Shown one piece after another: positions 1 to 23,230 of a DNA stretch of 64,000 nt. Numbering within the stretch: position 1 is the first letter of the stretch; each line of letters opens with the position of its first letter. The stretch is from contig JARGPD010000003.1 of the NCBI GenBank assembly GCA_029212845.1, positions 3,417 to 67,416 on the forward strand. Direction: 5' to 3'. The DNA comes from Planctomycetota bacterium. Lineage in GTDB: Bacteria > Planctomycetota > UBA1135 > GCA-002686595. The notes beneath the pieces are model-generated. The model had not been told where the DNA came from. It searched no databases and saw nothing but the letters and a program-made list of their open reading frames with translations. The position numbers and the translations under genes are program-made.

Positions 1-388
1 CGCAGTCGCCACAGATCTCGGAGTGCTCCTCGTGGGGCACGAAGTCGTGGATCTCGACGCCCGCCGCGAAGGTGCCCTGGGTCAGGCGCGTGGTCGCGGA
101 CAGGGCCACGAGGCCGGGGTAGACGCGCATGCCATGGGCGTCGACAGTCTCGCAGCCGTCGGGCAGGATCAGCTCGTAGCCGATCTCCTCGATCTTGCCG
201 TTCTTGGAGAGCAGGGTGGCGCCGCGCAGCACCTCGCCGGTGCCGGCGAAGATGTCTCCGCCGACGATGGCCAGGTAGCTGTCCTCTTCGTGGTCGTCGG
301 CAAGCAGGGCCAGGCTCGGCGCGGCGAAGGAGAGGGCGAGGCTGAGGCCGAGGGCCCCGCCGATGAGTTGCTTCTTCATGGTCTTCAT
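1..388 (-). CDS. Amidohydrolase-fold paralog, N-terminal part only (gene runs off left edge); secreted; HxH position degenerate
   Basis: Absent from the ORF track because there is no stop in the window. My reverse-complement translation from the ATG at 386-388 reads MKTMKKQLIGGALGLSLALSFAAPSLALLADDHEEDSYLAIVGGDIFAGTGEVLRGATLLSKNGKIEEIGYELILPDGCETVDAHGMRVYPGLVALSATTRL. This is a signal peptide followed by the same N-terminal pattern as the ten preceding genes. It starts 12 nt after the stop of 401..1681. Confidence 0.6.
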   Translation of the reverse strand, partial: MKTMKKQLIGGALGLSLALSFAAPSLALLADDHEEDSYLAIVGGDIFAGTGEVLRGATLLSKNGKIEEIGYELILPDGCETVDAHGMRVYPGLVALSATTRLTQGTFAAGVEIHDFVPHEEHSEICGDC

Positions 389-400
389 CACTGGTTCCAC

Positions 401-1681
401 CTACTGGGCCGAGGCCTCTTCCACGAAGTCGCCGGCGTGCATCACCGCCTTCAGGTTGGTCGATGCTTGGAAGGGATCGCCGTCGAAGAACAACATCGTC
501 GCCTCCTTGCCGGCGCCGAGGCTCCCGACGGTCTCGTCCACACCGAGCAGGACGGCCGGCTCGTGGGTCATCGCGGCCAGGGCCGCCTGGGGGTCCATGC
601 CGCGCTTGACGAGGTGCCCGACGTGCTGGCGCCACTTCTCCTGGTTGCCCAGGTCGTCGCCGTTGGGGATGAACACGACGCGCGCACCAGCGCGGTCGAG
701 CTCGGCCGGGATGTTGCGCTCGCGCGCGGTCCAGGGCATCAGGGTCAGGCGCGGCTCAACGACGACCTGGCGCTCGTCGGCACCGAGCTTCTCGGCGACC
801 TCGTACAGATCGATGTCGTTGCGCAGCGGCACGCGCATGGACCAGCTGATCTGCTCCTCGCCGAGGGCGTCGATCAGGTGCAGGTAGTCGCCCGCCTTGC
901 GGATCGAGAACATCGCGCTGAGCTCGCCTTCGCGAAGGTCGAGGAAGGCGGCGGCCTCGTCGCTGGGATCGGGCTCGACGAAGTCACCCGGGTCGACGGG
1001 CTCCTTCTTCTTGGCCTTCTCTTCGTCGTCGTACTTCTTCCACTTCTTCAGCTCGTCGTCGTACTTCTCCTTCGCCTTCTCGTGCTTCTCACGGGCTTCG
1101 GTGACCTTCTCGAGGTGCTTGTCAGCCTCCTCGAAACCATCGCGCAGGGTCTTCTTCGCCTTGCTGTTCGACTCCATCAAGATCTTGAGGTACGCGCCCT
1201 CGCGCACCAGCATGGACTCGCGCGAGTCGCCGGCGGTCGAGACCACCACCGCCTGCCCGGGAATCTGGTTGCCGGGGGGGTACAGACCGAGGGTCGTCAC
1301 GCCAGCCTCGAGCAGCTCGCCGTAGATCGGCTGGCGCGGGTACAGCTCGGTCGAGGCCTGCACACCGGGCTGGGTCCCGCTGCCGCCGCTGCTAGACATG
1401 CCAGCGCGGGAGTAGCAGTTGACGAAGCCCGGCGTCACCACCCAGTCAGGACGATCGATCACGCGGATGCCGCGCTCGATCTCGAGGTCCTGGCCGATCG
1501 TGATGATCTTGCCGTTCTCGATCAGGATGACCGCATGCTCGATCGTGCCCTGGGAGACCGTCTCGGCACGGCCCACGCGGAGGGCGAACAGGTCGGGGGT
1601 GGGGCTCGCCGGAGCGGCGAGGAGCGGTGCTTGCGTCCCAAGGACACAGGCCAAGCCAACAAGGAGGTTTCGCATCTTCAT
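401..1681 (-). CDS. Secreted amidohydrolase-fold protein, HxH lost (PGFVNCYSRAGM), with a Lys/Glu-rich insertion
   Basis: Signal peptide MKMRNLLVGLACVLGTQAPLLAAPA. N-terminal GKIITIG...PGFV entry motif and C-terminal GSLGAGKEATMLFF strand. Charged insertion EKHEKAKEKYDDELKKWKKYDDEEKAKKKE. Confidence 0.8.
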   Translation of the reverse strand: MKMRNLLVGLACVLGTQAPLLAAPASPTPDLFALRVGRAETVSQGTIEHAVILIENGKIITIGQDLEIERGIRVIDRPDWVVTPGFVNCYSRAGMSSSGGSGTQPGVQASTELYPRQPIYGELLEAGVTTLGLYPPGNQIPGQAVVVSTAGDSRESMLVREGAYLKILMESNSKAKKTLRDGFEEADKHLEKVTEAREKHEKAKEKYDDELKKWKKYDDEEKAKKKEPVDPGDFVEPDPSDEAAAFLDLREGELSAMFSIRKAGDYLHLIDALGEEQISWSMRVPLRNDIDLYEVAEKLGADERQVVVEPRLTLMPWTARERNIPAELDRAGARVVFIPNGDDLGNQEKWRQHVGHLVKRGMDPQAALAAMTHEPAVLLGVDETVGSLGAGKEATMLFFDGDPFQASTNLKAVMHAGDFVEEASAQ

Positions 1682-1696
1682 GGTCGAGTCAGGAAA

Positions 1697-2959
1697 TCAG
1701 AACCACTGACCATCGTGGGTCCGCTGGTATTGAACTTCGCCGTCGATGACGACGACCTCCGCGCGGGTGCGCGGGTCGAGAGGATCGCCGGTCCAGATCA
1801 CGAGGTCAGCATCCTTGCCGACCTCGAGGCTGCCGACGCGATCCTCGATCCCGAAGGTCCGGGCAGGGTGGATCGTGAGGGCCTTCAACATCGTGTACGC
1901 ATCCGCCCCGTGGTGGACCGAGACCGAACCCTGGAGGAAGAGCTCCTCCTGGGGGATCACGGGTGCGTCCGTGTTGAGTGAGAACAGAGGCACGCCGGCC
2001 TCCACGTAGGCCGCAGAGGTGCCGACGATGCGACCCTCCTTCATGCCTAGGTTGAAGTTGAACGTGCGCGGGCCGTGGTTGACGGGCACGCCCATCGACG
2101 CCACGTAGTCGGCCGTGTACCAGCCATCGAAGCTCCCGTGGCTGACGGCGCAGCGCGTGTCGTAGCGGCCCTTCCACATGCGCACGGTGCTGGCGACGCC
2201 CTCGTTGCCCGCACAGTGGATCAGCACCGGCAGCTCGCCGGCGTGGATGCGTGTCAGGTTGGCGAGGGCCGGGTCGAAGCTGCCGGTGTCACGCGCCTGC
2301 ACGGCGCGGTCGTTGACCTCTTCGAGCAGCCAGCCGAGGCCAGCGCGCGTGGCGCCGATGTCCCCGGCGCGCCGCTCGGGGTTGTGGGTCTGGGCGACCT
2401 TCATGCCGCCCGGATCGGCGAGCACGGCGCCCTCGTAGGTCGACTCGGTCTTGGTCTTCAGCAGCACGCCGAAGCCCGAGATGCTGGTGCCGCTGCCGGG
2501 GATGCCGAAGATCGTCGTCACGCCCGCCGCGCAGGCACGGCGCACGTTCGGGTTGCCGGCGACGATCGTCGGGCGCGTCGAGAACTCGTGGTTGGTCGGC
2601 ATCACCATGTCGTTGGTGTCGCCCCAGCCGCCGGCGTGGATGTGCGAGTGCAGGTCGATGAAGCCGGGCGTGACCCAGGCCTCATCGAGCTCGATCGACT
2701 CGAAGCCCGCGGGCACGTCGATCGGCGCGCCCACGTAGGTGATGTCGCCGTTCTCGACCAGCAGCATGCCCGGGTCGAGGATCGTGTCGCCGGCGTTCAT
2801 CGTCAGCACACGCCCACAGCGGATCGCCAGGGAGGGTGTCGCGACCGGCGCGTTGTGGATCTCGATCGGACGCACGTCGGCGTACGCATCGCCGGTGCCG
2901 GAGACGCCGGGGACCAAGGTGCTGGCGACCAGCAGGGTCAAGCTCGTGAGGGCTGCCAT
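1697..2959 (-). CDS. Secreted amidohydrolase (COG1228-like), metal ligands intact
   Basis: Signal peptide present. Motifs PGFIDLHSHIHAGG (HxH), VLIHCAG, VSHGSFDG, NTDAPV and GSLEVGKDADLVIW. Confidence 0.9.
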   Translation of the reverse strand: MAALTSLTLLVASTLVPGVSGTGDAYADVRPIEIHNAPVATPSLAIRCGRVLTMNAGDTILDPGMLLVENGDITYVGAPIDVPAGFESIELDEAWVTPGFIDLHSHIHAGGWGDTNDMVMPTNHEFSTRPTIVAGNPNVRRACAAGVTTIFGIPGSGTSISGFGVLLKTKTESTYEGAVLADPGGMKVAQTHNPERRAGDIGATRAGLGWLLEEVNDRAVQARDTGSFDPALANLTRIHAGELPVLIHCAGNEGVASTVRMWKGRYDTRCAVSHGSFDGWYTADYVASMGVPVNHGPRTFNFNLGMKEGRIVGTSAAYVEAGVPLFSLNTDAPVIPQEELFLQGSVSVHHGADAYTMLKALTIHPARTFGIEDRVGSLEVGKDADLVIWTGDPLDPRTRAEVVVIDGEVQYQRTHDGQWF

Positions 2960-4266
2960 TAGAAGAGGCGCTCCTCGCGGGCGTCGTAGGACAGCTCGCC
3001 GTTGACGTAGACGCGAGTGACCGCCGAGCGCGGGTCCGCCGGGTGGCCGTCGAGCACCACGATGTCGGCGTCCTTGCCGGCCTCGAGACTGCCCACGCGG
3101 TGGTCGATGCCAGCCACCTCGGCGGGCACGATCGTCAAGCCGCGGACCACCTCGCCCGCTTCATCGCGGAAGCCGAAGCGCGCGCCCATGGCGCCCTGCA
3201 GGGCCAGCTCCTCGGCCGGCACCACCGGGGCGTCGGTGTTGAAGCCGATGTCGGTCATGCCGCGGCGCTGGTACTCGGCCGCGACTCCCATGATCGCGCC
3301 GTCGGTGTCGATGCCGCGACCCTTGGTCTGCATGTTGATCGAGCGCGGGCCGAGGATCGCCGGGACGTCGAGCTCGAGCGCCCGGCCGGTGGCCTTGTAG
3401 CCGTCGAAGGTGCCGTGGTCGATGAACACGTCGAGACCGAACTCGCCCTTCATGATGTTCATCGAGGCCAGCACGACCTGGTGCACCTGGGTGTGCGTCG
3501 AGATCTGGGCCGCGCCCGAGTAGAGCGCGCGGAAAACCTCGAACTGCGGGTTCACCTCGGGGGCGGGCTCGTCCTTGCCCCAGTCGCCGGCCTCGTAGGC
3601 GGCCCAGGTCTTGGCGTAGGCGACGCCGCGGGTGAACGCCTCGCGCACGGTCCAGTTCAGCATGATGCGGTTCATGCCGTACCCCCAGCGCTTGGGGTTG
3701 TCTGCCTGGGCGACCTTGAGCGAGCCCGGGTCGCGCACGACCATGTCCTCGTAGCTGGTCGGAGCGGTCTTGAGCAGGATGCCCTCACCGCCGAGGTTCG
3801 TGGCGCTGCCGGGGATGTAGAGGATCGTGGTCACGCCGCCGGCCAGGGCGCGCCGCAGGTTGGCGTTGCCGGGGACGACGGTGCACTTCACGCGCAGGCC
3901 GGGGTTGGCCTGGTAGACCGCGTCGTTGTATCCGCGACCTGCGATGTGGCTGTGCAGGTCGATCATGCCGGGCATCAGCCAGCTGTCGCCGAGGTCCTCG
4001 AGCTCGTAGCCCTCGGGCACCTCGACGTCGCGCGGCAGGACCGCCTCGATGCGGCCGTCGCGGCTGAGCACGGTGCCGTGGTCAACGACGGTCTGCTCGC
4101 CGTCGCTGCTGCACACCAGCACCTTGGCGGCGCGCAGGGCGAGGCCCGGGGACGTGTCCCCCACCGGCTCCTGGGCGCCCATGCAGGTCCCCGCGCCCGC
4201 AGCCCAGAGGGCAGCGGCGCCGAAGACTCCGAGGGGCGCTCGGAGGATGGAGACGGTGGCGGTCAT
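2959..4266 (-). CDS. Secreted amidohydrolase, metal ligands intact
   Basis: Motifs PGMIDLHSHIAGRG, ISTHTQ, IDHGTFDG, NTDAPV and GSLEAGKDADIVVL. Signal peptide present. Its stop overlaps the next gene's start by 1 nt (TAATG at 2957-2961). Confidence 0.9.
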   Translation of the reverse strand: MTATVSILRAPLGVFGAAALWAAGAGTCMGAQEPVGDTSPGLALRAAKVLVCSSDGEQTVVDHGTVLSRDGRIEAVLPRDVEVPEGYELEDLGDSWLMPGMIDLHSHIAGRGYNDAVYQANPGLRVKCTVVPGNANLRRALAGGVTTILYIPGSATNLGGEGILLKTAPTSYEDMVVRDPGSLKVAQADNPKRWGYGMNRIMLNWTVREAFTRGVAYAKTWAAYEAGDWGKDEPAPEVNPQFEVFRALYSGAAQISTHTQVHQVVLASMNIMKGEFGLDVFIDHGTFDGYKATGRALELDVPAILGPRSINMQTKGRGIDTDGAIMGVAAEYQRRGMTDIGFNTDAPVVPAEELALQGAMGARFGFRDEAGEVVRGLTIVPAEVAGIDHRVGSLEAGKDADIVVLDGHPADPRSAVTRVYVNGELSYDAREERLF

Positions 4267-4273
4267 CGGGGCT

Positions 4274-5599
4274 CTAGTACTCGCGCTTCTCCTCGGCGTC
4301 GTAGACCAGGTGGCCTTCGATCCAGACGCGCTCGACGGCCGAGCGGGGGTCAGCGGGGTGGCCGGTGATCTGCAGGATGTCGGCGTGCTTGCCGACCTCG
4401 AGGCTGCCGGTCTCGTGGCTGATGTTGGCGATGCGCGCGGGGATGATCGTCAGCCCGCGCACGGCCTGCATGGCCTCATCGCGGAAGCCATGGCGCACGG
4501 CGACGGTCGCCTGCAGCTGCAGCTCCTCCTGGGGCATCACGGGGGCGTCGGTGTTGAAGCCGATGTCCTTCACGCCCGCGTCCTGATAGCCCACCGCGGT
4601 ACCGCGCCAGCCTTCGTGTTGGATGTTCTGGGACCAGCCCATGAAGCCGCGCGAGGGAGCGTCCACGTTGCGCGGGCCCAGCTGGGCGGCGACGTCGAGG
4701 CGCTTGATCTCGGAGCCGAGCCGCCAGGCGCCGATCGTGCCGTGGTCGATGAACAGGGGCAGGCTCAGCTCCTCCACGACCATCGAGAGGGACTCTGCGA
4801 CCACCTGGTAGATCTGGGTGTGGGCTGAGATCTGCGCCATGTGGGGCACAAGCCAGCGGAACACCTCGAACTGCAGGTCGATGTCCGGCTCGGGACCGGT
4901 GCCGTCCTCGAAGGCCTGCCAGAGCTGGGCGTAGGCGACGCCGCGCTTGAGGGTCTCGCGCGTGTGGTAGTTCATGAAGCTGCGGGCGACACCCCAGGCG
5001 TAGCGCTCGGGGTTGCCCGATTGCGCCAGCTTCATCGAGCCCGGGTTGCGGATCTCCATCGACTCGTAGTCGTGGAGCCCCGTCTTCAGCAGCACGCCCT
5101 GGCCACCGATGTTCGAGCCGGAGCCCGGGATGAACAGGATCGAGGTGACGCCGGCGGCGACGGCGCGGGTCAGGTTCGGGTTGCGCGGCACCACGGCGGT
5201 CGAAGCGCGCACGCCGGGGTTGGTCAGGTAGACCGTGTCGTTGATGTCGAAGCTGCCCGCGACGTGGGAGTGCAGGTCGATCATGCCCGGCATGAGCCAG
5301 TCGCTACCGAGGTCGTGGACCTCGTAGCCCTCGGGGACCTCGAGCGTGCCGCGGCGTCCGATCGCCTCGATGCGGCCGCCACTCAAGAGGATCACGCCAT
5401 GGTCGATCACCTCGGGACCCTGCTCGGCGCAGGTCAGGATCTTGGCGGCAAAGAGCGCCTGCTTGACCTCGGGCACGACCTCGTCGGCACGCGTGACCGG
5501 CTTCGCCGACGGCGGGTTCTGCACACCAACGGGCTCGTCTCCCAGAGCAATGGGAGCGACGAGACCTGCTAGGAGGAGTCCGGTAAGGGGGGCTTTCAT
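4274..5599 (-). CDS. Secreted amidohydrolase, metal ligands intact
   Basis: The track ORF 4274..6649 is over-extended. The plausible start is the ATG at 5597-5599, giving MKAPLTGLLLAGLVAPIALG (signal peptide). Motifs PGMIDLHSHVAGS, ISAHTQ, IDHGTIGA, NTDAPV and GSLEVGKHADILQI. Confidence 0.85.
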   Translation of the reverse strand: MKAPLTGLLLAGLVAPIALGDEPVGVQNPPSAKPVTRADEVVPEVKQALFAAKILTCAEQGPEVIDHGVILLSGGRIEAIGRRGTLEVPEGYEVHDLGSDWLMPGMIDLHSHVAGSFDINDTVYLTNPGVRASTAVVPRNPNLTRAVAAGVTSILFIPGSGSNIGGQGVLLKTGLHDYESMEIRNPGSMKLAQSGNPERYAWGVARSFMNYHTRETLKRGVAYAQLWQAFEDGTGPEPDIDLQFEVFRWLVPHMAQISAHTQIYQVVAESLSMVVEELSLPLFIDHGTIGAWRLGSEIKRLDVAAQLGPRNVDAPSRGFMGWSQNIQHEGWRGTAVGYQDAGVKDIGFNTDAPVMPQEELQLQATVAVRHGFRDEAMQAVRGLTIIPARIANISHETGSLEVGKHADILQITGHPADPRSAVERVWIEGHLVYDAEEKREY

Positions 5600-5628
5600 G
5601 GCGGAGGGCCCGATGGGGCCCGGCTGGG

Positions 5629-6924
5629 TCACTGGATGTGCCGGCCTTCGATGAAGACCTTGGAGATGCGCGAGCGCGGGTCGGCGGGGTGCCCGCTGAT
5701 CACCACGATGTCGGCGTGCTTGCCGACCTCGAGGCTCCCGACCACGTCGTCGATCCCGGCCGCGATGGCCGGGTTGATCGTCAGGCCACGGACGGCCTCC
5801 ATGTTCGAATCGTCGAGGCCGAAGTGGACCGCCATGGCGGCCTGCATCGTGTACTCCTCGTCCATGATCACCGGCGAGTCGGTGTTGAAGCCGATCACCT
5901 TGTGGCCCGCCTGCTGGTAGCCGGCGGCGACGCCGCGGAAGCCCTCGGCCTCGATGTGGCCAGCCCACTGCATGAAGCCGCGCGCGGGCGCGTCGACGTT
6001 GCGGGGACCGAGCATCGCGGGGACGCCCAGCTCCTGGGCCAGGCCGCCGAGGCGCCAGGCCCCGATCGTGCCGTGGTCGATGTACAGGTCGAGGCCAAAC
6101 TCCTGGGTCACCATGGTCAGCGACTCGAGCACGACCTGGTAGATCTGCGTGTGGGCCGACACCTGGGTACGCTTGGCCAAGAGGTCGCGGAACAGCTCCC
6201 ACTGGATGTCGATCTCGGGCTCCTCGCCGCCGTTCTTCTCGAAGTCGGCCCAGCGGTGCGCGTACTCGAGACCGCGCTCGAAGGTGTTGCGCGTGTGCCA
6301 GTTCATGAAGCTGCGGGCCACGCCCCAGGCGAAGCGCTCGGGGTTGCCCGACTGGGCCAGCTTCAAAGAGCCAGGGTTGCGAACCTCGCAGTCCTCGTAC
6401 TTGTCGAAGCCAGTCTTGAGCAGGACACCGGCGCCGCCCATGTTCGAGCCCGAGCCCGGGATGTAGAGCACGCTGGTCACACCAACCCGCGCTGCGCCCA
6501 TGGAGGACTTGTTGCCCGGCGTGACCGCCGAGGAGGCGCGCAGGCCGGGGTTGGTCAGGTAGACCGTGTCGTTCAGGTCGTTGACGCCCGAGTACAGGGA
6601 CTCGCCCGACTCGTGGGTGTGCAGGTCGATGAAGCCCGGCGATAGCCACCTCTCACCGAGGTCCTCGAACACCCGCCCACCCTCGGCGGGCGGCAGGTCG
6701 GCCAGCTTGCCGACGAAGGTGATGCGGCCGTCGCGGATGGCGAGGACGCCGTTGTCGACGACGCCCGCGGGGCCCTCGGCCGCAGTCAGGATCTTGCGCG
6801 CCTCGAGCACCAGCTCGGGCCCGCCGACTTCACCCGCGACCGGCGCGTCCACGGCCACCCCACCCAACGCCACGGGGGCGGCGAGCAGGAGTGCCGGGAA
6901 GAGCCCTGGAAGCAGCGGGGCCAT
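5629..6924 (-). CDS. Secreted amidohydrolase, metal ligands intact
   Basis: The track ORF 5629..7311 is over-extended. The start is the ATG at 6922-6924, giving MAPLLPGLFPALLLAAPVALG. Motifs PGFIDLHTHESGES, VSAHTQ, IDHGTIGA, NTDSPV and GSLEVGKHADIVVI. The start overlaps the upstream stop (TGATG). Confidence 0.85.
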   Translation of the reverse strand: MAPLLPGLFPALLLAAPVALGGVAVDAPVAGEVGGPELVLEARKILTAAEGPAGVVDNGVLAIRDGRITFVGKLADLPPAEGGRVFEDLGERWLSPGFIDLHTHESGESLYSGVNDLNDTVYLTNPGLRASSAVTPGNKSSMGAARVGVTSVLYIPGSGSNMGGAGVLLKTGFDKYEDCEVRNPGSLKLAQSGNPERFAWGVARSFMNWHTRNTFERGLEYAHRWADFEKNGGEEPEIDIQWELFRDLLAKRTQVSAHTQIYQVVLESLTMVTQEFGLDLYIDHGTIGAWRLGGLAQELGVPAMLGPRNVDAPARGFMQWAGHIEAEGFRGVAAGYQQAGHKVIGFNTDSPVIMDEEYTMQAAMAVHFGLDDSNMEAVRGLTINPAIAAGIDDVVGSLEVGKHADIVVISGHPADPRSRISKVFIEGRHIQ

Positions 6925-9740
6925 CAATCGACGATCTCCCGGCCGGCGACCCAGGTGCGCTGCACGCGGGCGTTGCCATCGAGCGGGCTGCCGTCCAGCA
7001 AGAGCACGTCGGCGTCGAGGCCCATGGCTAGGCGGCCGACGCGGTCGTCGATGTCGAGCATGTCGGCCGAGTCCGCGGTCAGGGCCCGCAGGGCACCGGC
7101 CGGGCTCATGCCCTCGACCATCGCGAAGGAGGCCAGGAGCAGCAGGTCCGCCGCGCCCTCCTCGGCCGCGCTGTAGAAGGCCACCGGAATCCCGGCTGCC
7201 TGCAGCTCGGCGAAGCGGTTGACGCTCTCGAGGCCGCTCGTCGAGCGGGTCGGCCAGCGGTCGGGCAGGATGCCCGCGATGCGGCCGGAGATCTGATCCT
7301 TCACGCGCCAAGCATCCTCGGCGCCCAAGAGCACCGGCTTGATGCCCACGGCCTCGAAGGCCGCGACGCAGTCGAGGATCTCATCGTCCCGGCTGGCCTG
7401 GACGATCACGGCGACCTCGCCCATCAGGGCGCGGCGCAGGGGCTCGAGGTTCGGGTCCAGGTTCGGCTCCTTGGGCATGCCCTTGGGGTCCTTCGGGTCC
7501 GGCTCGGGCTTGCGCACCTCGGGGCGGCTGGCGATGACGTACTCGCGGCTGGTCCGCTCGGCTTCGAACTCGAAGCTGGCACCACGCCACTCGATCTTGC
7601 CTTCGAGCTTCTCGTCGTCGAGCTCGCCGGTCACCACCAGCCCGACGTCACCCTTGACGCCGTGCACGGAGAGCTTGCCCTTCTTGTGGTCGAAGGTGCC
7701 CTCGAAGCGCATCAGGCGATCGGCGACGGCGGAGGCGCGCAGGGAGCCGCGCACCTCGGTGGTGCCCTCGGACGGACCGTCCGAGAACTGGAAGCGGGCC
7801 TTGCCCCAGTCGGAGGTCGACTCCCACACGCCGGTCAGCGGGTCGAGGTCCTTCTCCTTCTTCTTCTTCTTGCCGTCGTCCTCTTCGGACTCCTCGGCGT
7901 CCTCGGCCTTGTCCTCGTCCTTCCCCTCTTCGGCCTTCTCGACCTTCGGGGCGGGCGGGGTCCACTCGGCCATGGCGGCCTCGTACTCCTCCCAGGACTC
8001 CTTGTACTTGACCGCCTTCTCGAGCATCGAGGTCACGTTGGAGCCGATGCGGTAGCGGTCCGAGCTGCTCCAGATCATGCGGACGGCGGCATCGTCCTCG
8101 ACGACCATCGACTCGTAGTCGGCGCCGGCCGGCTTGTAGGCCAGCAGCGACGTCGCGCCACCACCGATCGAGTAGGGCGAGAGCATCACGGTCGTGACGC
8201 CCGCCTTGGCGATGCGGCGGCCGTCGGCGTCGTCGGGGGTCAGCACACGGGTCATCGAGAAGCCCGCCGGCGCCACCTTGCGGGAGCCGTCCATGCCGAA
8301 GTGACCGAGCGCGTCGATGATCCCGGGCATCGCGGCCTCGCCGCGGATCACGGTGGCACCCTTGGGGTGCGCGACGCGCTCGCCGACCTCGAGGATGCGG
8401 CCATCCTTCATCAGCAGCTGGCCGGGTCGCAGGACCTGGCCGTCGCCGACGAAGAGTTCTTCAACCTCGAGCACGACCACGCCCTCGGACTTGCCGAGGA
8501 AGCCCAGCTCGCCGTCAACCCAGGTGGCCCGCACGGAGCTGCCCAGGGTCATCGGCTCGCCGGAGAGGACCACGAAGTCGGCGTCCTTGCCACTGGCGAG
8601 GCTGCCCACCCGGCCGGCGGCCCCGATCAAGACGGCGGCGTCGGAGGTCACGGCGGCCAGGGCCGCCTGGGGCGAGAGGCCGCCCTGGGTGCAGAGGGTC
8701 GCGAGGGCCAGGAGGTTGGCCGGGTTGGTGTTGCTGCTCGGCGCGATGGCGAAGCGCACACCGGCCTTGGCGAGGGCAGCGGGCACGTCGAGGGTCGGCC
8801 ATTCGGCGTCCTCACCCTTGCCCCAGTTCGTCGCGGTGCCCAGGCGCTGGCGCGGCTGGAAGACCACGCCCACGTTGGCGGCAGCCAGGACGTCGGCCAC
8901 GTCCGCGGCACTATGGGCGCCGTCGACAACCACGGTCTGACCGTTCGCCGTGGCGAAGTTGGCAACGGCGCGCAGCTCCGACGCCGAGCCAGCGGTCAGG
9001 CGCCACGTGGCGCCCGCCTCGAGGGCCTTGGCCAGGTCCGCGGCGGCGTAGGGTCCGAAGTCCTCGTCCACCTCGGCGCCCGTGCTCGCGAGGAGCAGCT
9101 GGTCCAGGGCGCTGACGGCACCCTGCAGGCTGTGCGGCAGCTGGGGCATCTCGACGCCCATGCCGACGTCGACCGTGGCCGGGACCGGGGGCTCCCAGAA
9201 TCCCTGGGTGCGGTAGGCGTCGGAGGCGACCGAGCCGTCGACCGCCGCCATGGCGGAGACGATCGCGCGCTCCTTGGCACCACCGAGCTTGACCACACCA
9301 CCGAGGCCACCGAGCAGGCGCCCGCCGGCAGGGTCGATGTAGGCGCTCGTGACGCCGCTGGCGAGCATCGCCCGGCGATCGGCGAACAGGTCGAAGTTGT
9401 CGACGGCGGACAGGGCTGCGTCCGCGGTGCGGGGACCGGGCATGCCTCGGCCGAAGCCCGATTCGGCGACCACGAGGCCGGGGATCAGGTGTGCGTCTGG
9501 GCCGTAGTCGACGACCTGGGCGCCACTCGGGACGTCAAGGTCTGCGCCCACGGCAAGGATGCGGCCGTCCTGGACGACGATCGAGCCGTTCGTGATCGTG
9601 CCTGCGGCATCCATCGTGTGGATGTGGCCAGCGCGGATCACGACGGTGTCGCCACCGGCGGCTGCGAGGGGACTCGCAGACCAGGCGACCGTGCCAATGA
9701 GGGCGAGGCCGACTGCGGAGAGGGTGATGTGCTTGTTCAA
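6924..9740 (-). CDS. 938-aa secreted double amidohydrolase-fold protein; both modules lack HxH; the central region has a charged insertion and a small beta-rich domain
   Basis: Signal peptide MNKHITLSAVGLALIGTVAWSASPLAAAGG. Module 1 (about aa 1-415) has PGLVVAESGFGRG and GSLASGKDADFVVL. Module 2 (about aa 420-938) has PGIIDALGHFGMDG and GRLAMGLDADVLLL. The insertion spans about aa 575-765. Confidence 0.85.
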   Translation of the reverse strand: MNKHITLSAVGLALIGTVAWSASPLAAAGGDTVVIRAGHIHTMDAAGTITNGSIVVQDGRILAVGADLDVPSGAQVVDYGPDAHLIPGLVVAESGFGRGMPGPRTADAALSAVDNFDLFADRRAMLASGVTSAYIDPAGGRLLGGLGGVVKLGGAKERAIVSAMAAVDGSVASDAYRTQGFWEPPVPATVDVGMGVEMPQLPHSLQGAVSALDQLLLASTGAEVDEDFGPYAAADLAKALEAGATWRLTAGSASELRAVANFATANGQTVVVDGAHSAADVADVLAAANVGVVFQPRQRLGTATNWGKGEDAEWPTLDVPAALAKAGVRFAIAPSSNTNPANLLALATLCTQGGLSPQAALAAVTSDAAVLIGAAGRVGSLASGKDADFVVLSGEPMTLGSSVRATWVDGELGFLGKSEGVVVLEVEELFVGDGQVLRPGQLLMKDGRILEVGERVAHPKGATVIRGEAAMPGIIDALGHFGMDGSRKVAPAGFSMTRVLTPDDADGRRIAKAGVTTVMLSPYSIGGGATSLLAYKPAGADYESMVVEDDAAVRMIWSSSDRYRIGSNVTSMLEKAVKYKESWEEYEAAMAEWTPPAPKVEKAEEGKDEDKAEDAEESEEDDGKKKKKEKDLDPLTGVWESTSDWGKARFQFSDGPSEGTTEVRGSLRASAVADRLMRFEGTFDHKKGKLSVHGVKGDVGLVVTGELDDEKLEGKIEWRGASFEFEAERTSREYVIASRPEVRKPEPDPKDPKGMPKEPNLDPNLEPLRRALMGEVAVIVQASRDDEILDCVAAFEAVGIKPVLLGAEDAWRVKDQISGRIAGILPDRWPTRSTSGLESVNRFAELQAAGIPVAFYSAAEEGAADLLLLASFAMVEGMSPAGALRALTADSADMLDIDDRVGRLAMGLDADVLLLDGSPLDGNARVQRTWVAGREIVD

Positions 9741-9762
9741 GTGGGGTGCCTCCGAAAGGGGC

Positions 9763-11178
9763 TTACTTGGCGTCGTCCTTGCTCGGAAGCTCGGCCTCTT
9801 CGGTCTCTACCGCGGCGGCGCCGCGGGGCTCGACACCCTCGTACAGGTGCTTGTTGCGCACGTCCTTGGTGCGGTCGTAGATGACGCTACCCTCGACGAC
9901 GGCTTGCTCGACGAAGGAGGTCATGTCGAGCGGGTCGCCGGTCAGGAGCAGCACGTTGGCCAGCTTGCCGACCTCGAGGCTGCCGACCTGGTCACCGAGG
10001 CCGATGATCTCGGCGGCGGTGGTCGTCACGGCTGCCATCGCGTCCTTCGGGCTCATGCCGTGGCCGACACAGACGGCGGCCTGGAACCAGAGCGAGTTGG
10101 TCGAGCTGTTGGCCGAGCTCAGCGCGAAGGGGATGCCCTTCTCGGCGAAGACGCCGGGCACGAAGGTCTCGGTCTCCTCCTCGGTGACCACGTCGGTCTC
10201 GACGTGGACGAGGTTGGAGTCGAGCACGACCGACAGGCCCGACGCGGCGATGGCGTCGGCGGCCTTCCAGCAGCTGTTGTCCAGCACGAGGGTCGTGCGC
10301 GCCGTCAGACCGTTCTTCGCGGCGAAGTCGATCGCGGGCTGCACGTCCATCGGGGCGCCGCAGTAGAGGAAGACGTCGTGACGCCCCTCGACCATCTCGA
10401 GCAGCGGCAGGATCTTCTCGTCGATCTCGGCACGGTCGACGTTCTCGAGGCCTTCGACCTTCCAGCCGGTGCCCGTCATGGCGCGGCCGGGGGCCTTGCC
10501 CTCTTCCAGGTCGCGGCCCTGGGCGAGGGCCTCGCGGCGCTCGTAGTCCTTGGTCTCTTGGGCGTCGGTGGCCAGCTCTTCGAGCTCCGAGCGCAGGTCG
10601 CCGAAGGCGCGCTCCAGGGCCTGACGCTGGGTCGCGCGCGACTTGCCACCCTTGGGCGCGATCGAGATCTTGAACCCGTAGTTCGGGCGCATGGTCATCT
10701 CTTCGACGGTCATGCCGGTCGGCTTGACGATGCGACCGTTGCCGGCCACGACCGTGTTGTTGCCCTGCTGCACGTTGATGGTCGTGATGCCCCAGCGCTT
10801 GCAGTCCTCGAAGTAGAAGCTGACCGGATCGATCGAGTCGCGCACGTTCAGGAACGGCGTCACGTCGAGGTTCTCGTTCGAGCGGTCCATGCCGCTGTCC
10901 GAGTGGGCCTCGACGAAGCCGGGCGAGGCGACGAAGTCCGGGCCGCCCAGCACGGGCGCGTCCCAGGGCTTCTCGACGTCGGCGGCGGCGCCGATCGCGG
11001 TGATGCGACCGTTCTCGATGACGATGACGCCGTCCACGATGTCATCGCCCGCTTGGGTGATGATGCGGCCGGCCTCGATCACCAGCTTGTCGCCAGCGGC
11101 GGCGTCCGCCACTTGCAAGGATCCGAGGAGGAGCGAGGCGCAAAGGGCGCCTTGGACGAGGGTCCGGGGGATGGTCAT
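9763..11178 (-). CDS. Secreted amidohydrolase-fold protein, HxH degenerate (PGFVEAHSDSGMD)
   Basis: Signal peptide MTIPRTLVQGALCASLLLGSLQVADA. Motif GSLEVGKLANVLLL. Acidic C-terminal tail. Confidence 0.85.
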   Translation of the reverse strand: MTIPRTLVQGALCASLLLGSLQVADAAAGDKLVIEAGRIITQAGDDIVDGVIVIENGRITAIGAAADVEKPWDAPVLGGPDFVASPGFVEAHSDSGMDRSNENLDVTPFLNVRDSIDPVSFYFEDCKRWGITTINVQQGNNTVVAGNGRIVKPTGMTVEEMTMRPNYGFKISIAPKGGKSRATQRQALERAFGDLRSELEELATDAQETKDYERREALAQGRDLEEGKAPGRAMTGTGWKVEGLENVDRAEIDEKILPLLEMVEGRHDVFLYCGAPMDVQPAIDFAAKNGLTARTTLVLDNSCWKAADAIAASGLSVVLDSNLVHVETDVVTEEETETFVPGVFAEKGIPFALSSANSSTNSLWFQAAVCVGHGMSPKDAMAAVTTTAAEIIGLGDQVGSLEVGKLANVLLLTGDPLDMTSFVEQAVVEGSVIYDRTKDVRNKHLYEGVEPRGAAAVETEEAELPSKDDAK

Positions 11179-11240
11179 GATCCGTCGGGGAATGGGGGCT
11201 TGTTGGATGTTCGGTTGGGGCGGCGCTTTGCAGCAGGCCG

Positions 11241-12509
11241 CTAGTTCGAGCTGGTGAAGACGACCTCGCCGTTCAGCACGACGCCGACGACGCGGGAGGT
11301 CGCGGCGAAGGGCTCGCCGCTCCAGAGGATCAGGTCAGCGTCCTTGCCGACCTCGATGCTGCCCACGCGGTCGTCGACTCCAGCGAGGCGGGCAGGGGTG
11401 ATGGTCACGGCCGCGATGGCCTCGTCGCGGGTCAACCCGCCACGCATGGCGTAGCCGGCCTGGGCGCCGAGTTGTCCGGTCACGCTGCTCTGCCCGTGGC
11501 TCGAGAGGGCCACCGGAACGCCCAGGTCGACCAGGGTCTTGGCCGTGTTCCAGGCCAAGAAGCCGTTGTCGATCGCCGTGCGCCCCTGGGGCGCGTGGGG
11601 CGGCAGCACCGCAGCGGTGCCGGAGCGCACGAGCAGGCCGGGCTCTTTCCACGCCTCGGCAGCGGCGTCCACGACGAGCAGCGGCAGGCCGACCTCTTCC
11701 TTGAGGTAGATCGCCGTGCGGATGTCCTGGGTGGCCGAAGCCTGGACGAAGTAGGGACGCTCGCCCTCGAGCACCGAGGCCAGGATCTCCCAGCCTTCGA
11801 ACTGGCGCTCCTCGTTCTTCATCGCCGCGAGGGCGTCGTAGAAGCTCTTGCGGTGGACCCACTCGGTGCCCATGCGGGTCGTGGGACGGCGCGAGAAGTG
11901 ATCGGTCGGGCGGCCGTAGACGGGGTGGTTGCCGCGGCTCGCGTGGGAGCCGAAGGCGCCGCGCAGGGCCACGTCGGCCTCGACGAGGCGGTCCTCGATC
12001 GAGGGCTCGCCGCCGGTCTTGAGGACCGCCATCATGCCGCCGATGCAGGCCTCGTCGGCCGGGGTGTACATCACCGAGGTGACTCCGGTGCGCAGGAGCC
12101 GCTCCCAGCGCTTGTCGAACAGGTCGATGCCGTCCGTCGTGCTCAGGTACGGGATCGTCTCGGAGGACTCCTCGACCGACAGGTCGGCGAGGTGGATCCG
12201 GGGGCTGAGGTCGACCATGCCGGGCGTGATCGCGCCGACGTGGAGGCCCTCGTGGTCGCCCGAGGCGCCCGGCACGACGGCCGCGATCTTGGAGCCCGCG
12301 ATGGCGATCGTGCCGCCGTCGATGACGTCACCGGCAGCGGTGTAGATCTTGTCGGCCGACAGCAGCAGCTTGACGACCGGGGCGGAGGCCTCGACCGGCT
12401 CGGCGGTCTCGACCACCTCCCAGGTGATCTCGCCCGCGTTCGCGGTCAGGGACAGGGCGCCGAAGAGCAGCGGGGCGCCGAGCTGGAACAGGGTTCGGTC
12501 GGACATCAC
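11241..12509 (-). CDS. Secreted amidohydrolase-fold protein, HxH degenerate (PGMVDLSPRIHLAD)
   Basis: Signal-peptide-like N-terminus. Motif GSIEVGKDADLILW. ATGA overlap with the upstream gene. Confidence 0.8.
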   Translation of the reverse strand: MMSDRTLFQLGAPLLFGALSLTANAGEITWEVVETAEPVEASAPVVKLLLSADKIYTAAGDVIDGGTIAIAGSKIAAVVPGASGDHEGLHVGAITPGMVDLSPRIHLADLSVEESSETIPYLSTTDGIDLFDKRWERLLRTGVTSVMYTPADEACIGGMMAVLKTGGEPSIEDRLVEADVALRGAFGSHASRGNHPVYGRPTDHFSRRPTTRMGTEWVHRKSFYDALAAMKNEERQFEGWEILASVLEGERPYFVQASATQDIRTAIYLKEEVGLPLLVVDAAAEAWKEPGLLVRSGTAAVLPPHAPQGRTAIDNGFLAWNTAKTLVDLGVPVALSSHGQSSVTGQLGAQAGYAMRGGLTRDEAIAAVTITPARLAGVDDRVGSIEVGKDADLILWSGEPFAATSRVVGVVLNGEVVFTSSN

Positions 12510-13672
12510 TTGGCGTCTCCTTCGGTCGCTTCGACCTGGGCGCCGTCCACGTAGACGGCCTCGAGGGTGGTGGTGAGCTCGAGCGGGTCACCGCTCCAGA
12601 GGACCAGGTCGGCGTCCAAGCCAGCGGCCACGCGGCCGACTCGGCCGGACACGCCCAGCATCGCCGCCGGGCTGGCGGTCAGGGAGTTCCAGAGGGCGCC
12701 TCGGTCGATGCCTTCGCGGGCGGCGAGGGCCGCGCCGAAGCGCAGGCAGTCCGCGCCACTACCGGTGTCGGCCAGTCCGAAGGCGAAGGGCACGCCGGCC
12801 TCGACCAGCGCGGTGATCGACTCGTAGCGCCAGGGCGAAGTGCCCATGCCGAGCGGGCTGAGGGCGACCGCGTGGCCGGCCTCGGCGAGCTCGGGGGCGA
12901 AGTCCCCGGCGCGGTCCGCACCGCGCAGGGTGGCCTTGAGGCCGGTCCGCTTGAGCAGGTCGAGCGCGCGGCGGATCTCGTGGCGCGCCGAGACGGCAAC
13001 CTCGAGGCCGAGCTCGCCCGCCACGACCTTGCCGAAGGCGCCTTGGCCCTCGGTGAAGCGCGCCTCGACCGCGTGGACCGCGCCGGCGTAGCTGGTCGGG
13101 AAGCGGTTGCCGCGCAGGGCCGGCGGTGCCAGGCACAGGGCCAGGTGGGAGCTCTCGTTCAGCATCGTGCCGCCGCTCGTCTTGACGACCGCGCCGGTGC
13201 CGCCGGCCACGTTGCCGCGGCCGGAGGTCAGCCCGAAGCTGGTCACGCCAGCGCCGGTGGCCTTGGCCAGGCTCGAGTCGTCGGGGTCGAAGCCGTCGCG
13301 CAGCTCCAGGTCGCCCAGGAAGGCGCGCGTCGAGTCGTCGGCACCGGAGACCATGCCATAGGTGCCGTTGGCGGCCACGATGCCAGCCGTCAGCCAGCCC
13401 TCGTGTTCGATCACCCGGATCGTGTCGGCGAGGGTGCCCTGCAAGTCGGCCGCGGGGCCGACTGCGAGGATCTTGCCGCCATCCACGAGCACGAGGCCGT
13501 TCTCGATCACCGTGCCGCCGTCGACGGCCACGTGATCGGCGATCAGGGCGAAGGCCTCGGCCGAGGGGGTCTCGGCGGCCGCCGGAGCGGCCAGGAGCAG
13601 GGCACCCGCGAGGGCGCTGGTCAGGGTGGAGATGCCCATGGGAAGCTTGGTTCGGTTCTTGGTGTTCCTCAC
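12506..13672 (-). CDS. Secreted amidohydrolase-fold protein, HxH lost (AGIVAANGTYGMV)
   Basis: GTG start at 13670-13672 overlapping the upstream stop (GTGA). An alternative start is the internal MGISTLTSALAGALLLAAPAAA. Motif GRVAAGLDADLVLW. Confidence 0.75.
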   Translation of the reverse strand: MRNTKNRTKLPMGISTLTSALAGALLLAAPAAAETPSAEAFALIADHVAVDGGTVIENGLVLVDGGKILAVGPAADLQGTLADTIRVIEHEGWLTAGIVAANGTYGMVSGADDSTRAFLGDLELRDGFDPDDSSLAKATGAGVTSFGLTSGRGNVAGGTGAVVKTSGGTMLNESSHLALCLAPPALRGNRFPTSYAGAVHAVEARFTEGQGAFGKVVAGELGLEVAVSARHEIRRALDLLKRTGLKATLRGADRAGDFAPELAEAGHAVALSPLGMGTSPWRYESITALVEAGVPFAFGLADTGSGADCLRFGAALAAREGIDRGALWNSLTASPAAMLGVSGRVGRVAAGLDADLVLWSGDPLELTTTLEAVYVDGAQVEATEGDAK

Positions 13673-15093
13673 AGCTCGACGACCTCGCCAGCGGTGAAGA
13701 CGTGGGTCGGGCGGCCCTGCAGGGGGGCGCCGTCGAGGACGAGCAGCTCGGCGACCTTGCCGACCTCGACGCTGCCGAAGCGGTCGGCGAGGTCGAAGGT
13801 CCGGGCGGCGCCAAGGGTCAGGGCTTCGAAGGCTGCCTCGCGCTCGAGGCCGCCGGCGATCGCCAGGTGCGCCAGGATCGGGAGGTCCGCCGCGCGGTCG
13901 CCGCCGGTCCCGATGAGGACCTCGACGCCAGCCTCGGCCAGGGTGCCGAAGAGGCTGTTGTCGAAGCCGCTGCGCTCGCCGTTGGCGCGGGCGCCGGGAG
14001 CGAGGGGCTGCAGCAGGACGGCGATGTCGCGCTCGGCCAGCTGCTTGGCGAAGGGCGCGGCGCCGGTCGCGCCGCTGATCACGAGGCGCAGGCGACCGAA
14101 CCCTTCGGTCGCGGCGAGCAGGGCACGCAGCTCGGCGGCGCCATGGGCTTCGACGACGAGCGGCAGCTCACCGTGGGCGACGCGGGCGAAGACCTCGCTG
14201 TCGGCGTCGTAGCGCGGCGTCCGGGGGCGCTTGTCTTCCTTATATCGCTCCTCCTTGAACTCCTTGTCCTTCTCCTCCGCCTTCTCGATCTCCTTCTCGC
14301 GGTCCTTCTTCGCCTTCTTGAAGTCCTTCTCGAGCTCAGCCTCCTTCTCGGCGATGGCCGCCTCCCACTCCTTGAGCTCGTAGGCGTACTCGACCTGGGC
14401 CTCGCGGTAGGAGAGGCCACCGGAGATCATCGAGCCGATGCGGTCGGCCTCCATCACGCGATCGAAGACGTCCCCGCGGCCACCGCGGGACACGCCACAG
14501 GTCACGTTGAGGTTGGCGTCGTCGAGCACCACCAGGTGCTCAGCGGAGGCGGACGGGCGCAGGATCGCGCCGAGGCCACCGACGAACGCGTTCTGACCGA
14601 CCTGGGTGCGGGTCATCAAAACCCCGGCCTCCCGGGCCCACTGCCGCGCGTACTTCTCGCCGAAGGGGCTGGCCGCCTTGGCCGTGGCCGTCGAGGCCTC
14701 GGTCCCGAGGTCGCTCGCGCTGGCGGAGTCGATGCCCAGGGTCGACCAGGGGTCGATGAAGCCGGCGCAGACCTCCTTACCCTCGACGATGATCGTGTCC
14801 TCGTCGACCTCGAGGCCCTGGCCGACGGCGACGATGAAGCCGCCACGGATGAGCACCTCGGCGTTCTCGAGGACCTCACCGGGACGCACGTGGACGCGCT
14901 CGGCGCGCAGCAGCGTGGCGGGCTCGGCAGGGGCGACGACCTCGACCGGCTCCTCCTCGACGGGTTCCTCGGGGGCGGGGGTCTCCTCAGGGGTCTCGAC
15001 GGGCGCAGGCGCCGGGTCGTCGGTGAGGGCCCAGAGGGGCGCTCCCACCGCCAGGAGGAGAGTAAGGCTTCGGGTTAGGCTTGTCGGCAACAT
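13669..15093 (-). CDS. First gene of the array: secreted amidohydrolase-fold protein, HxH lost (AGFIDPWSTLGID), with a Pro/Glu linker and a Lys/Glu-rich insertion
   Basis: Signal peptide MLPTSLTRSLTLLLAVGAPLWA followed by a PAPAPVETPEETPAPEEPVEEEP linker. Insertion KEWEAAIAEKEAELEKDFKKAKKDREKEIEKAEEKDKEFKEERYKEDK. Motif GSVEVGKVAELLVL. Confidence 0.8.
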   Translation of the reverse strand: MLPTSLTRSLTLLLAVGAPLWALTDDPAPAPVETPEETPAPEEPVEEEPVEVVAPAEPATLLRAERVHVRPGEVLENAEVLIRGGFIVAVGQGLEVDEDTIIVEGKEVCAGFIDPWSTLGIDSASASDLGTEASTATAKAASPFGEKYARQWAREAGVLMTRTQVGQNAFVGGLGAILRPSASAEHLVVLDDANLNVTCGVSRGGRGDVFDRVMEADRIGSMISGGLSYREAQVEYAYELKEWEAAIAEKEAELEKDFKKAKKDREKEIEKAEEKDKEFKEERYKEDKRPRTPRYDADSEVFARVAHGELPLVVEAHGAAELRALLAATEGFGRLRLVISGATGAAPFAKQLAERDIAVLLQPLAPGARANGERSGFDNSLFGTLAEAGVEVLIGTGGDRAADLPILAHLAIAGGLEREAAFEALTLGAARTFDLADRFGSVEVGKVAELLVLDGAPLQGRPTHVFTAGEVVEL

Positions 15094-15425
15094 GAAGAAG
15101 AGGCGGGGTCGAGGTGGGCGCTGGAGTTTCGCCAGCGACCGAACGCCATTTTTCGAAGGGGTTTCCGAGGGTCGCGATCGCGGGAAGATCGAACGCCCGC
15201 GTTACCGCAAGGGCGTAGATGTGCTGATCCTAGGACAGGTTGCCAACTTCCGACATCCCTCCAAAGGGCCCGCTGCACTTCCTTTGCAATTGGAAGCCGG
15301 GCTCCTCACGAGGCCCTAGGGGAGGGCGAGACGACCGCCGGCCCGCCCTCGTCGACGCGCTAGCCCCAACTCCGGAGGGGAAACACCGATTCCGGACGTT
15401 CGGTCCCTGCCTCGATCCGGCTCGC
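15094..15425. promoter_or_regulatory. Divergent intergenic region; presumed promoter and 5' leader of the amidohydrolase array
   Basis: About 330 bp without convincing coding signal, visibly less GC-rich. It lies between the minus-strand array start (15093) and plus-strand genes. It contains small palindromes cgctgg-N7-ccagcg (15119-15137) and cgcgatcgcg (15173-15182). I could not identify a confident -35/-10 pair. Confidence 0.3.
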
Positions 15426-15950
15426 GTGCCCGTGAACAGTACTCCCACGAACCTGTTCCATCCCCTCCTGTTCGAGCCCAGCTATTGGCAGGAACGCCTG
15501 GCCAAGCTCAGCGGGCGTGCTCGGAGGATGATGATCGTCCCCAGGCCCGACCTCGGTCATGGGGGCCTGGAGGTGGTTGAGCTGCTGCTGCGCTCCCACG
15601 ATGATGTCCGCCTGCGCGGCATCGTGGCCTTCTGGCCCATCGCCGGGCCGCCGCGGCGCGTCCGCCTCCACTGGCCGCTCCAGACGGATGCTTCCGAGCT
15701 CGACCTCGACTCGGTCACCGTTGAGGCTGCTGACCTCTACCTGTACAGGGACCCGGACCGCCGCTTGGAGGACCGGGTCCTCGACTTCCTGTGCCTGATC
15801 TGCGGCGCCAAGGGCATGCCCGGGGTGCGCGGCACGGTCCCGACGATCTGCCTGGCGGCCGGCCAGGAGACGCCGGACGAGTACCGCATCGGCAAGGCTC
15901 TGCTCGAGCGCGGCTGGTGCTCCTCGATCGAGGTCGAAGAGGGCCCATAG
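15426..15950 (+). CDS. Hypothetical protein
   Basis: High third-position GC in this frame. Non-repetitive sequence ...RLRGIVAFWPIAGPPRRVRLHWPLQTDASELDLDSVTVEAADLYLYRDPDRRLEDRVLDFLCLICGAKG... with no motif I recognise. The start is uncertain: GTG at 15426 or ATG at 15525. The track start at 15240 is unlikely. Confidence 0.45.
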   Translation: MPVNSTPTNLFHPLLFEPSYWQERLAKLSGRARRMMIVPRPDLGHGGLEVVELLLRSHDDVRLRGIVAFWPIAGPPRRVRLHWPLQTDASELDLDSVTVEAADLYLYRDPDRRLEDRVLDFLCLICGAKGMPGVRGTVPTICLAAGQETPDEYRIGKALLERGWCSSIEVEEGP

Positions 15951-16089
15951 GGAAGACTTTGATGGGTGTTTCGTTGCCCTTTAGGGGTCACCCTCGGGCG
16001 GGCGGGCCGACCCCGTCCGTCCGCGTCACGTGGTGAAGGCTCCAAAGCAGCCCTCGGGTTCGGTGCTTGCCGTAGTAAACTCCCGCGCG

Positions 16090-21180: not shown

Positions 21181-21244
21181 AAATGCCTCTCCCGGCAGAC
21201 CGGGCGTGGGAACTAGGCGGCCGATCGCCCGTCCTGGAAGCTTG

Positions 21245-23221: not shown

Positions 23222-23230
23222 GGTCGGATC

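Follow-up and report, generated by a model that had tools for sequence, protein, structure and literature searches.

Why would a bacterium export a whole row of amidohydrolase-fold proteins, most of which lack the residues that hold the catalytic metals? This question is raised by a 64,000-nucleotide stretch of DNA from a Planctomycetota bacterium (assembly GCA_029212845.1, contig JARGPD010000003.1, positions 3,417 to 67,416 of the forward strand), here called the window, which has a G+C content of ~70%. Eleven consecutive minus-strand genes, named G0 to G10, fill positions 1-15093 of the window and encode 12 amidohydrolase modules, G6 being a fusion of two. We call the modules that keep all metal ligands live and the remaining ones dead. 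A first reading of the letters alone (the original prediction) had proposed one operon encoding four probable hydrolases and eight exported pseudoenzymes. Our ligand alignment, the tight gene spacing and the N-termini of the products support this proposal. The accompanying suggestion of a hetero-oligomer gains independent support from module fusions in this and other genomes (G6a-G6b, G1+G0, dead-live-dead and live-dead). In our estimate the chances are about even that the array encodes an exported (periplasmic) multi-subunit amidohydrolase made of paralogues related to the protein of PDB entry 3OOQ, with the dead paralogues as obligate partners of the live ones. Loci in related genomes are referred to below by L numbers and individual homologous proteins by P numbers. 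The array consists of the following genes and modules (coordinates, strand, description, basis in brackets).

<1-388, minus: G0, last array gene, 5' part (N-terminal 129 amino acids, aa), dead (52% identity to the full-length 483-aa orthologue in L003)
401-1681, minus: G1, dead, FVNCYSRAGM, strand-4 Lys only, Lys/Glu-rich insert (Pfam, alignment, L004 orthologue 50% identical)
1697-2959, minus: G2, live, G2-type lineage, DLHSHIHAGG, six ligand residues (Pfam, alignment, orthologues in L002, L004 and L005)
2959-4266, minus: G3, live, extra duplicate of the G5 type (Pfam, alignment; match to 3OOQ with an expectation value (E) of 4e-47)
4274-5599, minus: G4, live, extra duplicate of the G5 type (Pfam, alignment)
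5629-6924, minus: G5, live, G5-type lineage, DLHTHESGES (Pfam, alignment, L004 orthologue)
6924-9740, minus: G6, 938 aa, two modules, TTG start at 9740 (translation)
8487-9740, minus: G6a, first module of G6, dead, LVVAESGFGRG (Pfam, alignment, AlphaFold2 (AF2) model)
6924-8486, minus: G6b, second module of G6, dead, IIDALGHFGMDG, Lys/Glu-rich linker and beta-rich insert (alignment, AF2 model)
9763-11178, minus: G7, dead, FVEAHSDSGMD, Glu in place of the first His, Lys kept (alignment, AF2 model)
11241-12509, minus: G8, dead, MVDLSPRIHLAD (Pfam, alignment; best PDB match 3OOQ, E = 5e-33)
12506-13672, minus: G9, dead, IVAANGTYGMV, start overlapping the G10 stop in GTGA (Pfam, alignment)
13669-15093, minus: G10, first array gene, dead, FIDPWSTLGID, Lys/Glu-rich insert (Pfam, alignment; also first in L002, L004 and L005)

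Metal ligands were scored in a MAFFT alignment of the 12 modules with 3OOQ, in which the truncated G0 was replaced by its full-length L003 orthologue. The positions concerned are H-x-H in strand 1, Lys in strand 4, His in strand 5, His in strand 6 and Asp in strand 8. In related amidohydrolases these six ligand residues form a two-metal site bridged by the carboxylated Lys. All six are present in G2-G5, where the Lys lies in L/M-K-V/L-A-Q, the next His in e.g. ISTHTQ, the following His in IDHGT or SHGS and the Asp in NTDAPV or NTDSPV. In a set of 12 live sequences (orthologues and paralogues) from four genomes they do not vary. G0, G1, G6a, G6b, G7, G8, G9 and G10 have other residues in place of all four His and the Asp, for the most part small or non-ligand ones, which vary between paralogues, and the Lys is found in G1 and G7 only. 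The full-length L003 orthologue of G0 matches Amidohydro_1 (37 bits) and has none of the ligands. Inside each orthologue group the replacements are conserved, as in PGFVEAH(T/S)xGMDRxNE of G7 and PGMIDALGHLGLEGS of G6b. Since it is the ligand columns of the alignment that are replaced, the ligands have been lost and not shifted. Thus the count of four modules with the metal motif and eight without, made earlier from the letters alone, holds against 3OOQ, and so does the absence of displaced ligands in the eight. It is likely that G2-G5 are the hydrolytic subunits; the eight dead modules keep the fold and would be unable to bind metals.

All ten complete products exceed the Pfam threshold for Amidohydro_1 (29-61 bits, cut-off 25) and belong to the Amidohydro_1/_3 families (PF01979 / PF07969). 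Among PDB sequences 3OOQ stands apart as the closest match to live G3 (4e-47), dead G8 (5e-33) and a profile of the dead G7 family (1.8e-36), the next matches being 1e-11 or weaker. The AF2 models of G6 (pLDDT 86, predicted TM-score (pTM) 0.73) and G7 (pLDDT 84.6, pTM 0.80) match amidohydrolase structures only, 320-324 PDB chains at E <= 0.001, and so have the barrel fold with the small beta-sandwich domain. Specifically, their TM-score to 3OOQ is 0.80-0.82, and to the remaining amidohydrolases at most 0.59. Judged by sequence and models, all twelve modules descend from a 3OOQ-like ancestor, and the eight dead ones are members of the amidohydrolase superfamily by fold and descent, not as metalloenzymes. 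None of the ten complete products reaches the cut-off of any NCBIfam model. For nine of the ten the top NCBIfam match is NF051886 (Caulobacter-type Xaa-Pro dipeptidase), at 24-83 bits against a cut-off of 500, and membership in the Cc2672-type COG1228 dipeptidases was rejected on these scores. COG1228-type dipeptidases, which the original prediction had in view, give way to the 3OOQ-like group, closer both by sequence and by fold.

The products are probably exported. All eleven N-termini contain a hydrophobic stretch of at least 12 residues within the first 20-33 residues, and these segments are free of acidic residues except in G8 (Asp4, in the n-region). To the eye and by its hydrophobicity every product looks as if it carries a signal peptide, as had been claimed, and the signals look Sec-type. 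The L004 orthologues have hydrophobic, signal-peptide-like N-termini as well. Thermotogota proteins of the 3OOQ family, with their 380-390 aa, are too short for such an N-terminal extension.

The genes are closely packed. From G0 to G10 the intergene gaps are 12, 15, -1, 7, 29, -1, 22, 62, -4 and -4 nucleotides (nt). Three of the junctions quoted earlier, TAATG at 2961-2957, TGATG at 6926-6922 and GTGA at 13672-13669, are as described; the fourth, at 12509-12506, reads GTGA and not ATGA. The TG that follows this GTGA creates an alternative ATG start of G9 at 12506-12504. Overlapping stop and start codons suggest translational coupling. The entry motif ascribed to every product holds with PG in all but G9 and G10, which have AG. 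A scan of positions 1-15400 for sigma-70 promoters and intrinsic terminators found none above shuffle expectation, although planctomycete promoters may differ. As weak evidence this fits a single operon, and we infer that the 11 genes form one operon with a single transcript. How far the array runs on beyond the left flank had been raised as a question. In L003, L004 and L005 it ends with the G0 orthologue (483-548 aa), and by this comparison the array is complete at 11 genes. No further paralogue was found elsewhere in the 64-kb window.

Comparison with related genomes reveals which parts of the array are fixed. Engelhardtia mirabilis (L002), a cultured organism, has identical 11-gene content and order. 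L004 and L005, whose G7 orthologues are 57-61% identical to that of the window, have nine genes: G10, G9, G8, G7, G6ab, one G5-type live gene, one G2-type live gene, G1 and G0. The more distant L012 (30-43% identical) has, in this order, four dead genes of one module each, a dead gene of two modules, one live gene and a G1+G0 fusion. L003 (G1 46% identical), the single locus found in a scan of genome contigs with G1, was compared at the G1-G0 end of the array, where unrelated genes come after the 483-aa G0 orthologue. The eight dead modules stand in the same order in L002, L004, L005 and L012, and L003 matches over the end compared. Thus the synteny check proposed along with the original prediction finds the dead copies kept one-for-one and in the same order in relatives. 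Among these genomes live paralogues come in numbers of 1, 2 or 4, and the eight dead modules stay constant. Only the window genome and Engelhardtia combine four live with eight dead modules, the other relatives having 1-2 live ones; G3 and G4 are the extra duplicates. Mutual identity of G3, G4 and G5 is 49-60%, and that of G2 to G3-G5 is 35-37%. Between a dead module and any other module identity is only 23-30%, which makes the dead modules ancient paralogues; their recent tandem duplication is ruled out by the same values.

Fusions of modules are the second line of evidence. The G6a-G6b fusion is kept in the listed homologues of G6: this protein has 407 homologue clusters, and the matches listed are two-module proteins of 930-1034 aa, bar one 650-aa partial. 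An exact look-up of the G6 product as translated from the window (TTG start read as Leu) gave no record, and that of G7 led only to a 2.5-kb contig. In one relative (P0415) a G1-like and a G0-like module are fused, which in the window are separate neighbouring genes. In an exhaustive comparison of the G7-family profile with 1.84 billion representatives, 1116 clusters were found at E <= 1e-30, and many of the best 150 matches are multi-module proteins. Their architectures were assigned by our own regular expressions, which missed some modules, so that the counts are approximate. Proteins of ~1260-1590 aa are mostly dead-live-dead, with H-x-H in the middle module only (~40 of ~55 long ones); they come from Armatimonadota, Vicinamibacterales/Acidobacteriota and unclassified metagenome-assembled genomes (MAGs). 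Proteins of ~800-980 aa are live-dead, dead-live or dead-dead. The fused relatives have signal-peptide-like N-termini and score 220-340 bits against the G7 profile. The three-module gene of Armatimonadota stands alone, and an Acidobacteriota locus has six modules in five genes: live, dead, live, dead and then a live-dead fusion.

It is this combination that makes us read the dead modules as obligate partners: a fixed set of eight, conserved order, stop/start overlaps, the constant G6 fusion, the occasional G1+G0 fusion and dead-live fusions in other phyla. If this is true, each dead subunit would have a fixed role beside the live subunits, structural or in handling substrate, in which no other could replace it. 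Such an assembly most likely goes back to the duplication of a homo-oligomer, followed by divergence of the copies. The closest solved relative, 3OOQ, is an oligomer, with 10 chains in its one entry and a symmetry class of dihedral. Duplicated homomers commonly turn into paralogous heteromers (PMC1895999). An inactive amidohydrolase-fold subunit is structurally required in the dodecamer of Pseudomonas ATCase and pseudo-dihydroorotase (PMC7053772). In the literature searched we came across no account of a system of this kind, and neither this literature nor NCBIfam provided a match to a characterised pathway, so that the array does not fall under a system already known from these sources. As to its role, the closest relatives with a characterised function break C-N bonds in dipeptides, C-terminal residues or N-acyl amino acids, and scavenging of small amide compounds outside the cytoplasm is only a guess by analogy.

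Several points weigh against a multi-subunit enzyme. The evidence for contact is indirect (fusions and gene order), and physical association and stoichiometry are inferences. The pTM of 0.73 for the G6 model is a hint, and only a hint, that G6a and G6b pack together. Proteins that work one after another, with no stable complex, would also account for fusions and a conserved gene order. The number of live paralogues (1, 2 or 4) suggests no single obvious stoichiometry, G2 and G5 have no basic n-region at the chosen starts, and nothing in NCBIfam, in PDB names or in the gene neighbourhood points to a substrate.

A more specific form of the obligate-partner reading can be offered tentatively. The array product might be a periplasmic hetero-oligomer derived from a 3OOQ-type homo-decamer, in which eight dead paralogues occupy fixed positions round 1-4 live ones, with subunit differentiation as in the proteasome or CCT. 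The dead-live-dead fusions would then be simpler versions of the same design, and the whole would be a self-compartmentalised hydrolase outside the cytoplasm, with dead subunits that act as gates to its few active sites or shape the way to them. We regard this elaboration as possible but speculative.

Conservation of the dead modules bears on a different explanation. The dead modules could be independent exported proteins that bind small amide or peptide ligands, for instance as receptors or chaperones, that reuse the old pocket and are loosely linked to the live enzymes, e.g. by delivering or sensing substrate. Of all proteins in the array G7 is the best conserved, with ~60% identity to distant orthologues; it has 561 homologue clusters, and the 120 listed are all at least 56% identical. 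Compared with L004, G7 is 60% identical and the live subunits 53-55%, which is more than a passive scaffold needs. Moreover, every dead orthologue group has strongly conserved polar residues of its own near the former H-x-H loop (in G7 E90, D98, R99, N101, E102, D114, S115 and D117). This conservation and the invariant polar residues leave room for ligand binding or gating, beyond a pure scaffold. However, eight dead modules in fixed order and fusions to live modules elsewhere fit tight physical coupling better, and no transporter or sensor gene consistently adjoins the array in the loci compared. Loosely linked binding proteins are therefore an unlikely account, though one to be taken seriously. 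The named matches to G7 and G6 are from Planctomycetota, including the cultured Engelhardtia mirabilis.

The conserved substitutions could also be read as signs of new active sites. According to this explanation all twelve modules are separate enzymes, the eight ligand-free ones being metal-independent or using other residues, and the substituted positions are indeed conserved in each orthologue group. Metal-independent members of the amidohydrolase superfamily exist (LigI), but to our knowledge they retain the His and Asp set. The dead modules have lost this set, mostly in favour of small or non-ligand residues that are not the same in all paralogues, and the recurrent fusions of live with dead modules would be left unexplained. 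We consider twelve separate enzymes improbable and prefer the reading in which the dead modules are partners of the live ones.

The genes upstream of the array suggest yet another possibility. They are listed here together with the region in between.

15094-15422, no strand: intergenic, between G10 and the small divergent ORF, where the promoter of the operon presumably lies (by position; a sigma-70 consensus site was not found)
15423-15950, plus: small divergent open reading frame (ORF) for a cytoplasmic product, start uncertain (L004 counterpart 42% identical over 116 aa, E = 3e-22)
16030-17771, plus; 22361-25036, minus; 26404-27627, minus: upstream nucleoside-catabolism set (RpiB-like isomerase, DeoC aldolase, PNP_UDP_1 phosphorylase, CNT transporter, phosphopentomutase-like 'Metalloenzyme')
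18327-20537, minus: 736-aa protein with a Ser/Thr protein-kinase domain and a C-terminal FGE-sulfatase (formylglycine-generating-enzyme-like) domain (domain match)
20620-21405, minus: extracytoplasmic function (ECF) sigma factor gene, adjoining the 736-aa kinase gene

The array might act with these nucleoside-catabolism neighbours, by deaminating or ring-opening nucleobases or nucleosides outside the cytoplasm before uptake. The superfamily contains nucleobase deaminases and cyclic amidohydrolases, the upstream genes (rpiB, deoC, a purine-nucleoside-phosphorylase-family gene, a CNT transporter and a phosphopentomutase-like gene) would fit, and subsets of them also adjoin the arrays of Engelhardtia, L004 and L005. 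On the other hand, the nucleoside block at 16030-17771 is on the strand opposite to the array, kinase and sigma-factor genes are interposed, and the arrays or fusions of L012, L013 and L014 have no nucleoside genes nearby. The live modules are also far under every NCBIfam cut-off for deaminases and hydantoinases. The adjacency probably reflects shared ancestry in one clade, and a joint role in nucleoside catabolism is very improbable.

Finally, decay of functionless duplicates would also remove all catalytic ligands, but it has next to no chance of being the explanation and is ruled out by intact frames, low ratios of nonsynonymous to synonymous substitution (dN/dS), confident structure models, hundreds of orthologue clusters at 45-60% identity and one-for-one synteny in distant genomes. 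More specifically, dN/dS is 0.21 in G7, 0.13 in G6a and 0.25 in G6b, and 0.21 in the N-terminal part of live G5. These values were obtained by the Nei-Gojobori method from one close pair (the window and L007, ~90-93% aa identity in G6/G7) with G+C at third codon positions of ~90%, and are indicative only. The dead copies thus appear to be under purifying selection, and neutral evolution, named beforehand as an outcome that would speak against pseudoenzymes, was not what the frames (intact) and the dN/dS of 0.13-0.25 indicated.

How does the array compare with systems already described? 3OOQ itself, from Thermotoga maritima MSB8, is a structural-genomics entry of unknown function; it is the closest protein to every module tested, has the ligand set of G2-G5 and is oligomeric. 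Its family has more than 8000 matches, and the listed ones, of 377-404 aa (mostly 380-390), come from Thermotogota, Dictyoglomi and Clostridia. The homologues in Thermotoga sp. KOL6 and in a Dictyoglomaceae MAG are lone genes amid housekeeping genes, without a paralogue nearby. The 3OOQ family consists of single genes for proteins of 380-390 aa without an N-terminal extension. The array genomes differ in having 9-12 exported modules; eight of these lack the metal site, some carry large inserts, and one gene is a two-module fusion. The Cc2672 / Sgx9260-type COG1228 enzymes (3MTW, 3MKV, 3N2C, 2QS8; NF051886) have the superfamily and the ligand set in common with the live modules, but their E values (~1e-8) and TM-scores (0.5-0.56) are both far weaker than those of 3OOQ. 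Cc2672-type enzymes are described as single-gene homo-oligomers.

CRMP/DPYSL dihydropyrimidinase-like proteins are non-catalytic amidohydrolase-fold structural partners in hetero-oligomers. In the ATCase/pseudo-dihydroorotase of Pseudomonas aeruginosa a dead amidohydrolase-fold subunit is likewise a structural partner (PMC7053772), as the dead modules of the array may be. The dead modules resemble the pseudo-dihydroorotase type in that their catalytic residues are lost and purifying selection is kept. The difference is that the Pseudomonas complex combines one dead subunit with an unrelated cytoplasmic enzyme, and the array combines eight dead paralogues with live ones of the same fold, all of them probably exported. 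Closest in composition are the uncharacterised exported multi-module proteins of Armatimonadota and Acidobacteriota (NUL82615.1, MCH2279074.1, MCD6450809.1), which also combine live and dead 3OOQ-like modules. They have 2-3 modules per polypeptide, or six in five genes, compared with 12 modules in 11 genes and eight dead types in the window.

Going by these comparisons, the array would be an unusually extreme form of an amidohydrolase with pseudoenzyme partners, and evidently a widespread one. Pseudoenzymes usually occur singly; here eight distinct dead paralogues of one fold stand beside 1-4 live ones in one operon. A sizeable family of exported proteins annotated merely as 'amidohydrolase family protein' would then probably consist of multi-module assemblies. 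The system is well suited to asking how a homo-oligomeric enzyme becomes a hetero-oligomer in which most subunits are non-catalytic. It also makes the function of the widespread 3OOQ family worth determining, and as Engelhardtia mirabilis is cultured and has the same 11-gene array, experiments are possible.

Some further features of the modules and their surroundings were noted. After a disordered Lys/Glu-rich linker, G6b contains an inserted beta-rich domain of ~100 aa (G6 residues ~637-731, window 7547-7831, minus strand). AF2 predicts eight strands in it, with pLDDT mostly above 90, and there is no Pfam match to it at E <= 1. Similar beta-rich segments with G-x-W...G-x-L-x-G were seen by eye in three-module proteins of other phyla (P0382, P0410), where they lie between modules or within them. 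Long inserts between barrel strands 4 and 5, Lys/Glu-rich and partly helical, occur in G1 (~950-1140), G6b, G7 and G10 (~14150-14400). In G7 the insert is a single 39-residue helix (181-219), at a place where 3OOQ has a shorter helical excursion. A Lys/Glu-rich stretch is also present in the C-terminal tail of G0 orthologues. One three-module protein, P0379 (RYX80267.1), starts with MTNSRRAFVG..., which resembles a twin-arginine translocation (Tat) signal; a Tat-like start would mean export of a folded, possibly metal-loaded protein.

The small divergent ORF next to the array has no Pfam match at E <= 1. ORFs of similar size (~165-200 aa) are found at the same position in L002 (5111-5602), L004 (5184-5789) and L005 (5401-5901), and the sequence was compared with that of L004. 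L004 also has a pair of ECF sigma factor and kinase genes at the equivalent place. Downstream of the array, a Glycos_transf_3 gene (TrpD / nucleoside-phosphorylase-like, ~354 aa) is present in L003 (14306-15370) and L004 (19852-20913), in the latter on the same strand as the array and 55 nt past G0.

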